Shown here: piece by piece, positions 43,045-46,118 of the stretch
Position numbering within the stretch: the first letter of the stretch is position 1
How the letters are laid out: the number at the start of each line of letters is the position of its first letter
Assembly: GCA_963702105.1 (NCBI GenBank)
Contig: OY969712.1
Location: 1,796,312 to 1,860,311, forward strand
Direction: 5' to 3'
DNA length: 64,000 nucleotides
Source of the DNA: an uncultured Gammaproteobacteria bacterium
Lineage (GTDB): Bacteria; Pseudomonadota; Gammaproteobacteria; Steroidobacterales; Rariloculaceae
Translations under genes and position numbers: made by a program
Notes under the pieces: generated by a model
The model's database searches: none
Told to the model about the DNA's origin: nothing
The model's input: only the letters and a program-made list of their open reading frames with translations

Positions 43045-44508
43045 ATGACGACACTTGCGAGCCCGGGCTTCTTCGGCAAGTTGCCGAGCCGGGGAGATTT
43101 CGTGAGCCGCCGCACGTCGAGCGACTTCTCCGGGCGTTGGGATGCGTGGCTGCAGGCTTGCGTCGGCGCGAGCCGCGCCGCGCTCGGCGACGCCTGGCTC
43201 GACGTTTATCTCACGAGTCCCATCTGGCGCTTCGCGCTGGCACCAGGCGTGTGCGGCGAGCAGGCACAGCTCGGCGTCCTGATGCCGAGCGTGGACAAGG
43301 TCGGGCGCTATTTCCCCCTGGCGGCCGTCGTCGCGTGCGACGGAGCCGGCGGGCCGCTCGCGGTCGCGGCCGAGCTCGAGCCCTGGTACGCGCAGGTCGA
43401 GACGCTCATGCTCGCGACGCTCGCCGAGACGCCGCTGGAGCTGGAGGACTTCGATCGCCGCCTCGCAGCGCTCGTGCCGTCCGCACCTGCCGCCGCAGAA
43501 TGCGAGGCCGCCGAGCAGGGCGCGGTGAACGAGCGCGGCGAGCCGCGTCATCTGCGCGTCGCGGCGGGCAGGACCCTGCGCGAGGCGCTGCTGCCGCTCG
43601 GCATCGCCGCCCTCGAGACGGCCGGGTCGGCCCGTTCGTTCTGGTGGACGCAGGGTTCAGAGCGCGTCGAGCCCTGCATGCTTCTCGCCCACGAGCTGCC
43701 TTCGCCCGATGCCTTCGTCGCGCTGCTCGACGGCGAGTGGCGGCGGCACGGGTGGCGCTCCGAGGTCATCGGCGGTGCCGCAGCACCGCCCGCGCGCCTC
43801 GTCTTCGGCTCCGTTGCCGTCCGCTCGGCGGCGGTCAGCAACACCGGAAAGGTGCGCGAGCGCAACGAAGACGCCTGCGCCTCTCGAGACGATCTCGGCG
43901 TCTGGGCCGTCGCCGATGGCCTCGGCGGGCATGAGGCCGGCGCGATCGCGAGCGGCATGGTCGCTTCCGTGGTCGCAGGGCTCGAACCCGGGCGGAGCTT
44001 CGACGAGCGCCTGGAACGCCTCTTGCTCGGGCTCGGCGTCGTGAACGGCTGCCTGCGGGTGCTCGCCGAGCGCGACCCCGCCGTCACCCTTGCGGGCAGC
44101 ACGGTCGCAGCCCTTCTGATCGAAGGCGCGGCCGCGGCCTATGTATGGGTCGGCGACAGCCGCGTATACCGATGGCGGGAAGCCGGGCTCGAGCAGCTCT
44201 CGCGGGATCACTCCGAAGCGGCCGAAGGCGCGGACAATCACGTCATTACGCGGGCAGTCGGCGGCCGGGACTCGCTCGAGGCCGAGTCGGAGCGTACCGA
44301 CGCGCGCCCCGGCGATCGCTTCCTGCTCTGCACGGATGGGGTCTACGGCGAGGTCGGCACCGACGAGATCGCGGCGGCCTTGGCATTGGCGGACCCTGAA
44401 CAGGCCTGCGCCTACCTCGAGCGGGCCGTGCTCGCGGGCGAGGCGGCAGACAACTTTACGGCCGTCGTCGTCTGCATTGACGGCGCCGAAGGGACTCGGG
44501 CGGTATGA
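43045..44508 (+). CDS. tagF: TagF (DUF2094) fused to PP2C Ser/Thr phosphatase PppA
   Basis: N-terminus GFFGKLPSRGDFVSRR...PIWRFAL...GVLMPSVDKVGRYFPL is TagF. C-terminus RERNEDA...WAVADGLGGHEAG...LLCTDGV is PP2C. Confidence 0.9.
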   Translation: MTTLASPGFFGKLPSRGDFVSRRTSSDFSGRWDAWLQACVGASRAALGDAWLDVYLTSPIWRFALAPGVCGEQAQLGVLMPSVDKVGRYFPLAAVVACDGAGGPLAVAAELEPWYAQVETLMLATLAETPLELEDFDRRLAALVPSAPAAAECEAAEQGAVNERGEPRHLRVAAGRTLREALLPLGIAALETAGSARSFWWTQGSERVEPCMLLAHELPSPDAFVALLDGEWRRHGWRSEVIGGAAAPPARLVFGSVAVRSAAVSNTGKVRERNEDACASRDDLGVWAVADGLGGHEAGAIASGMVASVVAGLEPGRSFDERLERLLLGLGVVNGCLRVLAERDPAVTLAGSTVAALLIEGAAAAYVWVGDSRVYRWREAGLEQLSRDHSEAAEGADNHVITRAVGGRDSLEAESERTDARPGDRFLLCTDGVYGEVGTDEIAAALALADPEQACAYLERAVLAGEAADNFTAVVVCIDGAEGTRAV

Positions 44509-46118
44509 CGGACGGTCCCGACCGCACGCGCTTGAAGCCCGGCGAGGCGGAGGCGACGCGCCTGTTTCACGAGGCGCCACCGGAAGCGACTCGGCTGCGG
44601 CCCGAGCCCGGGCCGCCCGAGGCGACGCGGCTGCGGCCCGAGCCCGCGGCGCCCGAGCCGACGCGCCTGCCCCCCGAGCCCCCTGCGCCCGAAGGGACCC
44701 GGCTGCGGCCGCAGGCGGCGAGCCGGGCGCCGACAGGCTCAGACTGGTCGCACCCCGAAGAATGGGAGAGCAGGGAGGGACCTCCGCTCGCGCCCGGCAG
44801 CGTCATCAAGCAGCGCTTCGTGCTCGATTCCGTGCTGGGGCAGGGCGGCATGGGCATCGTCTATCGCGCGCTCGACCGACGTAAGCAGGAAGCGCAGGAC
44901 CGTGAGCCTTACGTCGCAATCAAGATCCTCGGCGAGGAATTCCGCCGGCATCCGAACGCATTGATCGCGCTGCAGCGCGAAGCGCGCAAGGCGCAGACGC
45001 TCGCGCATCCGAACGTCATTACGGTCCACGATTTCGACCGCGACGGCACCACGGTCTACATGACCATGGAGTTGCTCGACGGCGACCCGCTGAACAAGCA
45101 GATTGCCGCGCATCCGCACGGGCTCGCACGCGAGAAGGCGCTGCCGATCATTCGCGGTGCGGCGGAAGCGCTGGCCTACGCGCACAAGAACGGCATCGTG
45201 CATTCGGACTTCAAGCCCGGCAACATTTTCGTCACGCGCCGCGGCGTGAAAGTCCTCGACTTCGGCATCGCGCGCGCCGTGCCGATTCAGACAGGGGTCG
45301 CCACGGGTCAGGAGGCCGGCGCAGCGGGCGCGGAGCCGGCGGGCACGGATCACACCGTGTTCGACGCGGCGGGCCTCGGCGCGCTCACACCTTCCTACGC
45401 GAGCCCGGAGATGCTCGCGGGCGAGCCGCCGGCGCCGGCGGACGACGTCTTTGCGTTGGGCGTCGTGGCCTTCGAGCTGCTGACGGGGAGGCACCCGTTC
45501 GACAGGTTGCCGGCCGACCGCGCGCGCGACAGCGGCATGAAACCGCCGCCGATCGCCGACCTGCCGCGCCGCCAGCGCAAGGCGCTCGCGCGAGCGCTCT
45601 CGTTCGAACGGACGGCGCGTCAGCCGGACGCTCGCGCGTTCCTCAGAGAGCTGGATGGGCCGAGCCCGGTCCGCAAGGCGGCCTATGCCTCCCCGATCGT
45701 GGTGCTTGCGGCCGCCGCGGCCTACTTTTTCTACGCCGGCCACCAGCTCAAGCCCGACGTGCCGTTCTCGGCACTGCCGCCCGAGGCGCAAAAGGAGTTC
45801 AACGACGACATCGCGCAGGGCGACAAGGCGTTGAAGTTCGGGGCCGTGGCTTTGAACGACGCCTTCGACTATTTCTCGCGCGCGTATACGGTTCACCGCA
45901 ACGACCCGCGCGCGATCCGCGGGTTGCAGGCCGTCGCCGACGGCTTTCTGGGCTCGATGGCGGGCGCCGAGCCCGGCGTGAAGCGAGACGTGCTGCGCAA
46001 GCTGTACTGCCAGGAGTATCTTTCCGGCTACGCCCCGGTGCTGACGGCGTGCTCGAAGACGCTCGGCGCCGCGCAGTGCACGGAGGAGCGCATGGGCTGC
46101 GCGCCCGCGAACCCGTAA
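44505..46118 (+). CDS. ppkA: T6SS-associated Hanks-type Ser/Thr kinase PpkA with TM helix and small periplasmic domain
   Basis: GQGGMGIVYRA, VAIKIL, HSDFKPGNIF, DFGIA and SPE. TM AAYASPIVVLAAAAAYFFYAG. The N-terminal 70 aa hold tandem TRL repeats. Confidence 0.9.
   Translation: MTDGPDRTRLKPGEAEATRLFHEAPPEATRLRPEPGPPEATRLRPEPAAPEPTRLPPEPPAPEGTRLRPQAASRAPTGSDWSHPEEWESREGPPLAPGSVIKQRFVLDSVLGQGGMGIVYRALDRRKQEAQDREPYVAIKILGEEFRRHPNALIALQREARKAQTLAHPNVITVHDFDRDGTTVYMTMELLDGDPLNKQIAAHPHGLAREKALPIIRGAAEALAYAHKNGIVHSDFKPGNIFVTRRGVKVLDFGIARAVPIQTGVATGQEAGAAGAEPAGTDHTVFDAAGLGALTPSYASPEMLAGEPPAPADDVFALGVVAFELLTGRHPFDRLPADRARDSGMKPPPIADLPRRQRKALARALSFERTARQPDARAFLRELDGPSPVRKAAYASPIVVLAAAAAYFFYAGHQLKPDVPFSALPPEAQKEFNDDIAQGDKALKFGAVALNDAFDYFSRAYTVHRNDPRAIRGLQAVADGFLGSMAGAEPGVKRDVLRKLYCQEYLSGYAPVLTACSKTLGAAQCTEERMGCAPANP
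44520..44720 (+). repeat. Tandem coding repeat (about 36 nt / 12 aa unit, six T-R-L motifs) at the ppkA 5' end
   Basis: DRTRLKPGEAEA-TRLFHEAPPEA-TRLRPEPGPPEA-TRLRPEPAAPEP-TRLPPEPPAPEG-TRLRPQ. The DNA unit GAGGCGACGCGGCTGCGGCCCGAGCCCG recurs. Confidence 0.85.

Follow-up and report, generated by a model that had tools for sequence, protein, structure and literature searches.

A threonine motif repeated in the N-terminal tail of a PpkA-like kinase and present once on TssL in a type VI secretion cluster

Why does a kinase of a type VI secretion system (T6SS) carry, ahead of its catalytic domain, six copies of a short threonine motif that stands once at the start of TssL, a membrane subunit encoded in the same cluster? 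The question is raised by the 64,000-nt stretch of DNA analysed here (the window; positions count from its first letter), which holds a complete T6SS cluster with a PpkA-like kinase gene (open reading frame 44505-46118, + strand). On balance, we lean towards the view, drawn from sequence comparison, that the motif [DE]-x-T-x-[LIVMF]-[KR]-P would be the phospho-acceptor site of this kinase, with a single copy on TssL and an amplified set on the kinase, where the copies would serve as autophosphorylation sites and probably recruit the FHA protein TagH.

A threonine motif on the kinase and on TssL

Translation of 44505-46118 (+) gave a kinase N-terminus whose first 70 residues are identical to those quoted in the initial annotation. 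The motif copies are placed as follows:

44505-46118, + strand: gene for a PpkA-like transmembrane Ser/Thr kinase of 537 residues (Pfam Pkinase at residues 107-334, 1.2e-35).
44505-44789, + strand: disordered N-terminal tail, residues 1-95, bearing the Thr-motif array (AlphaFold2 confidence score, pLDDT, of 37-49 over residues 1-90).
44520-44540, + strand: motif copy 1, DRTRLKP, Thr8; orthologs start MTDxxD[RA]TR[LIV]KP.
44550-44570, + strand: motif copy 2, EATRLFH, Thr18 (from translation).
44583-44603, + strand: motif copy 3, EATRLRP (followed by EPG), Thr29; TRLRPEPG and the TssL segment TVLRPTPG are identical at 6 of 8 positions.
44619-44639, + strand: motif copy 4, EATRLRP, Thr41 (from translation).
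44655-44675, + strand: motif copy 5, EPTRLPP, Thr53 (from translation).
44691-44711, + strand: motif copy 6, EGTRLRP, Thr65 (from translation).
44586-44710, + strand: DNA tandem repeat with a 36-bp unit, 3.5 copies, 82% matches and no indels (Tandem Repeats Finder).
38190-38210, + strand: N-terminal motif of TssL, DRTVLRP, Thr13 (from translation; conserved in 71 of 79 TssL loci).

The triplet T-R-L occurs six times in the tail (Thr at residues 8, 18, 29, 41, 53 and 65) and takes up six of the eight threonines in its 95 residues; none of 200,000 composition-preserving shuffles of this tail reached six, the maximum being 2. The six copies reported by the initial annotation were therefore confirmed by translation and by the shuffle test, and the likeness it had seen of the kinase repeats to the start of TssL was borne out and is found again in many genomes. 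Its statement that the repeat is visible in the DNA holds for the last four copies, which alone form a true tandem repeat (36-bp, 12-residue unit), and not for the first two, which are older and diverged. The comparison of repeat number among orthologs that it had proposed revealed variation from 0 to 6, through independent tandem duplications. Copy 1 is the copy that is fixed in position, at the extreme N-terminus, and the one most like TssL (MTDDPFFGGGDRTVLRP). With the strict pattern [DE].T.[LIVMF][RK]P, four matches were found in the kinase tail, one in TssL and none elsewhere in the 12 cluster proteins (about 7,000 residues).

TssL, encoded from 38160, starts MTDDPFFGGGDRTVLRPTPGGR, and its Thr13 lies in a cytoplasmic extension ahead of the DotU domain, which begins at about residue 62. 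Syntenic orthologs start M[ST]DD[PT]FF..G-[DE]-D-R-T-[VLI]-L-[RK]-P-x-PGGR, and a TssL profile scan of metagenome contigs returned 80 loci, 79 of them scorable, with the consensus D-[RK]-T-[VI]-[LIM]-[RMK]-P-x-P-G-G. The core T-x-hydrophobic-x-P is present in 71 of the 79, with D or E at position -2 in 63 of these 71 and with Ser variants in none; the other eight loci form a single clade that reads GGFVPPNPGG and has no Thr at the motif site. The only structures among PDB sequence matches to TssL begin past the motif region.

The kinase ATG overlaps the stop codon of TagF-PppA as ATGA, the TssL start codon overlaps the stop before it in the same way, and both N-termini are kept in orthologs; therefore, the motifs of both proteins are translated. 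A downstream start codon for the kinase was rejected, as the next Met (M116) falls inside the kinase domain and orthologs share the N-terminus. ATGA overlaps stand at 36303 (tagH/tssJ), 38160 (tssK/tssL) and 44505 (tagF-pppA/kinase), which suggests translational coupling along the operon.

The kinase is of the PpkA/TagE type, with a Hanks-type domain whose catalytic residues (K140, E159, D235, N240 and DFG at 252-254) are intact and invariant in the homolog alignment, and with a PP2C phosphatase, TagF and an FHA protein encoded beside it in the T6SS cluster. In an AlphaFold2 model of the whole protein, built on a 28-sequence alignment, the kinase domain is confident, an insert in the activation loop is disordered, one helix spans 388-412 and further helices at 426-530 are confident. 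The tail, in which P, E, A and R are abundant, is not docked on the catalytic domain in this model but simply disordered. Beyond the array, four further parts of the protein were placed:

44733-44765, + strand: box TGSDWSHPEEW, after the Thr array and ahead of the kinase domain; it reads TGS[DN]W[SA]HPE[EQ]W in most family members.
45348-45368, + strand: activation-loop site DHT(284)VFDA, which, like the tail motif, has the form [DE]-x-T-x-hydrophobic.
45678-45740, + strand: transmembrane helix, residues 392-412 (AlphaFold2 helix at 388-412).
From the end of the transmembrane helix to 46115, + strand: predicted all-helical, Cys-containing periplasmic domain (AlphaFold2 confident helices at 426-530).

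At the activation-loop position, 43 of the 96 homologs, every close one among them, have [DEN]-x-T-x-[LIVMF], mostly as [DE]-x-T-[VA]-F-D, and the Thr at this position is the usual autophosphorylation site of Hanks kinases. The model suggests a cytoplasmic kinase, one transmembrane helix and a periplasmic sensor domain. The periplasmic part (residues 413-537) gave no Pfam family match, and no von Willebrand A domain was found by Pfam; P. aeruginosa PpkA has such a domain in the periplasm. Periplasmic domains are described in the literature as variable among PpkA proteins.

The motif across kinase homologs and clusters

We compared 120 kinase homologs with 43-100% identity, 118 of whose tails entered the Thr-centred counts. 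The tails differ in length and in their spacers, which are non-homologous, and units such as DRTRLKP, DATRIKP, DERTRLQRP and DRTQFRP recur in 0 to 6 copies. Around the tail Thr, D or E stands at -2 in 41% (background 15%) and I, V or L at +2 in 37% (background 18%), with R at +1 enriched 2.6-fold, K or R at +3 1.7-fold and P at +4 1.9-fold; Ser- and Ala-centred control counts in the same tails gave no comparable pattern. The strict motif [DE]-x-T-x-[IVL]-[KR]-P occurs on the kinases 92 times with Thr and twice with Ser, two residues that are about equally abundant in the tails. A strict Thr in a disordered region, as looked for in an FHA-binding phosphothreonine motif, was found (Thr:Ser 92:2 on kinases and 71:0 on TssL; pLDDT <50), and the preference for Thr could come from the kinase rather than from an FHA reader.

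Motif-bearing DNA repeats in orthologs take the form of 36 bp x 4.3, 33 bp x 3 together with 27 bp x 1.9, 27 bp x 2, 42 bp x 2.5 and 60 bp x 2.9. Because the repeat period differs by lineage (27-60 bp), amplification of the motif must have been repeated and independent. The Thr-centred counts, the excess of Thr over Ser and the unrelated spacers mark the motif itself as a selected element and not just repeat DNA.

Copy number follows the genomic setting of the kinase. All 12 T6SS-linked members of the family have at least two copies (mean 3.9), compared with means of 1.4 for members beside only PP2C or FHA genes and 0.86 for those without partner genes nearby; the difference between T6SS-linked and partnerless members gave p=5e-6 (Mann-Whitney), or p=6e-4 once the close relatives of the window were collapsed. 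P0019, a motif-free homolog that is 59% identical, has no T6SS structural, TagF or PP2C genes upstream and has an FHA-domain protein about 4.5 kb off. Two kinases of the family that lie outside T6SS clusters but beside FHA and PP2C genes have Thr repeats of their own: D-A-P-T-E-[FLI]-T three or four times in L010 (Salinisphaera sp. PC39), and N-A-T-I-[LI]-R three times plus D-D-x-T-V-I in L019. Kinase-tail Thr arrays may extend beyond T6SS.

The motif also occurs on the two proteins together. In the metagenomic loci, the kinase has at least one copy in about 13 of 22 cases in which TssL bears the motif and in 0 of 9 in which TssL is without the Thr (Fisher p=0.002, over related sequences), and kinases that are only 27% identical still start with one copy, as in L100 (MPTNPDDDRTILQP). 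Some pairs from one genome are almost the same, as in L091. The kinase gene is one gene present in every motif-bearing cluster examined. Individual cases are given below, the organism rows being named plasmid or chromid records:

L091: TssL DRTILRP; kinase DRTILRS.
L115: TssL DKTVFRQ and DRTVIRP; kinase DRTVFRS, DATRIKP and DATRMRQ.
L127: kinase DRTVVTG, three times.
L142: kinase DRTQFRP, four times.
Azospirillum argentinense: kinase present (kinase domain 52% identical, same family); TssL DKTIFNP; kinase EGTVVQP.
Paracoccus alcaliphilus DSM 8512, plasmid p402633 (L179), 19515-28282: TssL DKTVFGG and GRTVIGR; kinase DRTVIAD, DRTVIGP and DPTLIGD.
Caballeronia sp. M1242: kinase present; TssL EQTMIKP; kinase DRTVIVS.
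Ruegeria and Leisingera: kinase present, without a tail; TssL DKTVI[RK]P; no motif on the kinase.
Vibrio crassostreae: kinase present; TssL EPTIVIK; no motif on the kinase.
Burkholderia stagnalis: kinase present; TssL of the GGFVPPNPGG type, no Thr; kinase with a possible DATDI (DATDIAVRP).
Photobacterium toruni: no kinase in the cluster; TssL without the motif.
R. phaseoli pRetBra5b: no kinase in the cluster; TssL without the motif.
B. ambifaria pBMC401: no kinase in the cluster; TssL without the motif.
S. medicae: no kinase in the cluster; TssL ambiguous (EGTLLSR).

In Paracoccus alcaliphilus, the copies on TssL and on the kinase have the core RTVIG in common, and no FHA gene lies within 20 kb. 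The same cluster encodes a 2117-residue protein upstream of tssK that has no Pfam match.

What the motif may do

The motif is conserved across many bacteria and is therefore probably a kinase phosphorylation and docking site, not a junk repeat. Because the kinase is present in every motif-bearing cluster and its activation loop reads D-x-T-[VA]-F-D, we read the motif as the phospho-acceptor consensus of the kinase. The shape of the activation loop, the predicted disorder of the tail and the way in which the motif tracks the kinase, being absent from the TssL of kinase-less Photobacterium, R. phaseoli and B. ambifaria clusters, all support this interpretation. The partners that it calls upon are encoded directly upstream of the kinase:

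34690-36306, + strand: tagH, FHA and T6SS_FHA_C domains (TIGR03354, 335 bits against a cut-off of 120; FHA domain at about 34771-34971, Pfam residues 28-94).
38160-39486, + strand: tssL, DotU and OmpA-like domains (Pfam DotU and OmpA split over two frames).
39483-43040, + strand: tssM (Pfam IcmF-related_N, IcmF-related and IcmF_C; start candidates GTG 39483 and ATG 39492).
43045-44508, + strand: tagF-pppA fusion, TagF_N and PP2C phosphatase (Pfam TagF_N 9.3e-45, PP2C_2 1.2e-11; NCBIfam TagF above cut-off).

By analogy with known systems, TagH would most likely be the reader of the motif in this cluster. The residues of its phosphothreonine pocket are present (G30-R31, S47/S48, H50 and N68), R31/S47 being the equivalents of A. 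tumefaciens R30/S46. A disordered linker of TagH contains W-D-E-T-G-F (residues 219-223, 35344-35358), and D-x-T-G-F recurs in the TagH of L082/L089, L026/L142 and L093; having the [DE]-x-T-x-hydrophobic shape, it could be a third substrate site. Another TagH segment, DATRVFQ (residues 18-24), was rejected as an extra site, as it abuts the FHA core and is probably folded.

We propose that the kinase would be activated through its periplasmic domain and would phosphorylate Thr284 of its activation loop (D-H-T-V-F), the threonines of its own tail and Thr13 of TssL. Anchored at the membrane, the resulting phosphothreonine array would offer the FHA domain of TagH a multivalent platform beside phospho-TssL and TssM, so that TagH would be concentrated where the membrane complex and the baseplate assemble, and the PP2C half of TagF-PppA would strip the phosphates and reset the system. 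Tandem duplication in this lineage has raised the motif count of the kinase to six. Phosphorylation of the tail and TssL threonines, TagH binding and an effect of copy number are predicted steps of this scheme.

Several points weigh against this interpretation. Phosphorylation of the motif Thr is read from sequence and not from biochemistry, and the correlations rest on related sequences and are not phylogeny-corrected, so that the p-values overstate independence. FHA domains usually select on the residue at +3 from the phosphothreonine, which here is K or R, with the hydrophobic residue at +2. Tail-less kinases stand beside motif-bearing TssL in Ruegeria, Leisingera and the DRTVIMP clade. An FHA protein is co-encoded with the motif in the window and in most loci but not in Paracoccus alcaliphilus or Caballeronia sp. 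M1242, whose TssL and kinase alike bear it and in which no FHA gene was found within 12-20 kb by a hidden Markov model built from 46 TagH FHA domains or by Pfam; therefore, FHA is not the universal reader of the motif. The best-studied phosphosite also differs: it reads DLPTVVEI in Agrobacterium and DRTVLRPTPGG here, with only T-V-hydrophobic in common, and the Agrobacterium-type kinase (310 residues) has no array, unlike the window kinase with its tail, transmembrane helix and periplasmic domain. In A. tumefaciens, moreover, FHA binds DLP-pT-VVEI weakly, with a dissociation constant of 0.5-1.6 mM (Lin et al. 2014, PMC3953482).

Finally, tssL is frameshifted in the window, and the T6SS may therefore be non-functional in this strain. 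Alignment by tblastn with intact orthologs (434-497 residues) placed the frameshift at about 38813-38821, where the orthologs read HRGESERELS; the DotU part is read in the same frame as 38160, the transmembrane and OmpA parts are in another frame that ends at 39486, and the result is a spurious 1626-residue reading frame running into tssM. As sibling assemblies of the same ENA series also contain fragmented genes, an assembly indel is plausible; a real pseudogene could also account for it.

Among other explanations, the array might be a decoy, buffer or pseudosubstrate: its sites would vie with TssL, and also with TagH, for access to the catalytic site of the kinase or to PppA, and would thereby set a threshold, a delay or auto-inhibition instead of recruiting TagH. 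This explanation, which we regard as unlikely, draws on the same motif evidence as the phospho-acceptor interpretation, and it would gain from the tethering of the tail to the catalytic domain, which gives a high local concentration, and from the differences in copy number between lineages, as for a tuning element. It also needs no FHA reader and so fits the FHA-less Paracoccus and Caballeronia clusters. However, it leaves unexplained why copy 1 is fixed at the extreme N-terminus, as the motif is in TssL, the AlphaFold2 model gives no docking of the tail onto the kinase, and kinase activity in A. citrulli promotes the PpkA-Fha association and does not merely gate it.

With a similarly small probability, the motif might serve for docking that does not depend on phosphorylation (for example, by beta-strand addition), with a structural Thr and a partner common to TssL and the kinase, such as TagF, TssK, TssM or the periplasm-coupled dimer of the kinase. 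The absence of Ser, Val and Ala at the Thr position in 71 TssL loci and the 92 Thr to 2 Ser on kinases are typical of a phosphothreonine site, the activation-loop Thr lies in the same context, and the TssL motif is gone from clusters that have no kinase but retain TagF or TssK/TssM. Such a docking peptide would nevertheless account for TssL conservation reaching past the Thr into hydrophobic-x-P-x-PGG, for the GGFVPPNPGG that Burkholderia-type TssL keeps without the Thr, and for the presence of TagF in all motif-bearing clusters when FHA is not in all. A functionless product of neutral replication slippage in a GC-rich, Pro-rich linker is disfavoured as very improbable indeed: a 36-bp tandem repeat does underlie the last four copies and such low-complexity tails change length fast, but the motif is kept while spacers diverge, is Thr-specific, recurs at different repeat periods, matches the TssL of the same genome and tracks the T6SS context.

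Besides the kinase and the TagH, TssJ, TssK, TssL, TssM and TagF-PP2C genes directly upstream of it, the window has TssA, TssC, TssF, ClpV and VgrG genes farther upstream, together with genes for a PAAR-like protein and a DUF2169 protein. Downstream, 46216-53098 encodes a Sel1-repeat and caspase (Peptidase_C14) protein, an autotransporter beta-barrel and a PKD/cadherin protein of about 1,150 residues; this three-gene module always trails the kinase family (also at L081-L088, L003 and L044), even without adjacent T6SS genes. It may be an envelope input to the periplasmic domain of the kinase, as TagQRST, RtkS or TssW are elsewhere. Two HEAT-repeat proteins (31131-32423 and 33048-34310), one of which matches TIGR02270 above cut-off, are encoded inside the T6SS cluster just upstream of tagH, after the DUF2169 gene and the PAAR-like toxin-domain gene.

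Known systems and what the array would add

In A. tumefaciens, TssL is phosphorylated on Thr14 in a PpkA-dependent manner and Fha binds phospho-TssL, a pathway opposed by a TagF-PppA fusion, with R30/S46 of the FHA domain required for binding of phospho-Thr14 TssL and for secretion; the phosphosite is DLP-pT-VVEI, conserved only in Agrobacterium and Rhizobium according to the authors (Lin et al. 2014, PMC3953482). The account of the fusion, the phosphorylation and the binding in the initial annotation is correct in outline, and as a model for the window Agrobacterium serves for the pathway and not for the site, which is not DRTVLRP. It offers no precedent for the array, as the Agrobacterium-type kinase of Rhizobium sp. 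BT04 (310 residues) is without an N-terminal Thr array. The order tagH-tssK-tssL-tssM-tagF/pppA-kinase is common to Rhizobium sp. BT04 and the window, and the window is also like Agrobacterium in its TagF-PP2C fusion, in a TssL Thr within the first 15 or so residues that is followed by V and a hydrophobic residue, and in the conserved FHA pocket. The TssL of Rhizobium sp. BT04 reads NLPTVVEL.

The PpkA-Fha pathway of P. aeruginosa H1 was reportedly described by Mougous in 2007. Like the P. aeruginosa H1 and A. citrulli systems, the window encodes a transmembrane Hanks kinase with a predicted periplasmic sensor domain, a PP2C antagonist, TagF and an Fha assembly scaffold; in contrast, the mapped target in those systems is Fha itself (T362 and T640). 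In A. citrulli, Fha foci need active PpkA and not Fha phosphorylation, a kinase-dead mutation weakens the PpkA-Fha pull-down, and both proteins form condensates, into which the cytoplasmic domain of TssL is taken up (Pei et al. 2025, PMC12607579). The catalytic Asp of the kinase of that PpkA-Fha system lies at residue 161 (PMC12607579); hence it has no long N-terminal tail, unlike the window kinase. Burkholderia-type TssL (GGFVPPNPGG) differs in being without the Thr, and the metagenomic kinases paired with it are without the motif, B. stagnalis having only its possible DATDI.

Multisite phosphothreonine scaffolds for FHA domains exist in Mycobacterium, where PknB juxtamembrane phosphothreonines act with GarA/FhaA and phosphothreonines of the Rv1747 linker act with its own FHA domains. 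There, as predicted here, phosphorylated threonines in a disordered segment recruit FHA, and multivalency drives clustering or phase separation. Unlike the motif described here, those sites are not known to form a regular single-motif tandem array or to be shared with a membrane subunit of a secretion system, and they stand in other sequence contexts.

V. alginolyticus PpkA2 phosphorylates TssL, and reviews up to 2026 mention TssL phosphorylation only in A. tumefaciens and V. alginolyticus. In the T6SS literature searched, including recent reviews, we found no N-terminal Thr array on PpkA and no conserved N-terminal motif on TssL. The pathway of kinase, PP2C, FHA and TagF is well known, and the array and the conserved TssL motif are a new variation on threonine phosphorylation within it. 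More tentatively, the motif might be a general phospho-code of kinase-regulated T6SSs, with TssL phosphorylation widespread in Alpha-, Beta- and Gammaproteobacteria instead of peculiar to Agrobacterium, and with copies of the TssL site on the kinase tail, amplified in some lineages to as many as six, that build a multivalent scaffold, nucleate TagH/Fha condensates at the membrane and tune the firing threshold by their number; we hold this to be possible rather than probable.

In summary, about 90% of the loci sampled for this type of T6SS have an N-terminal TssL motif in which the conserved residue is only ever Thr. The motif is lost in one Thr-less clade and in kinase-less clusters, which makes it a precise candidate phosphosite in many bacteria. 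It is experimentally tractable in cultured organisms whose TssL and kinase both have it, among them Azospirillum argentinense, Paracoccus alcaliphilus DSM 8512 and Caballeronia sp. M1242. The array on the kinase offers a molecular explanation for the puzzle in A. citrulli, that Fha foci depend on PpkA activity and not on Fha phosphorylation, and links the pathway to multivalency-driven condensate formation. If the motif is indeed the phospho-acceptor site of the kinase, a six-site, membrane-anchored phosphothreonine tail would be a simple multivalent nucleator of TagH.

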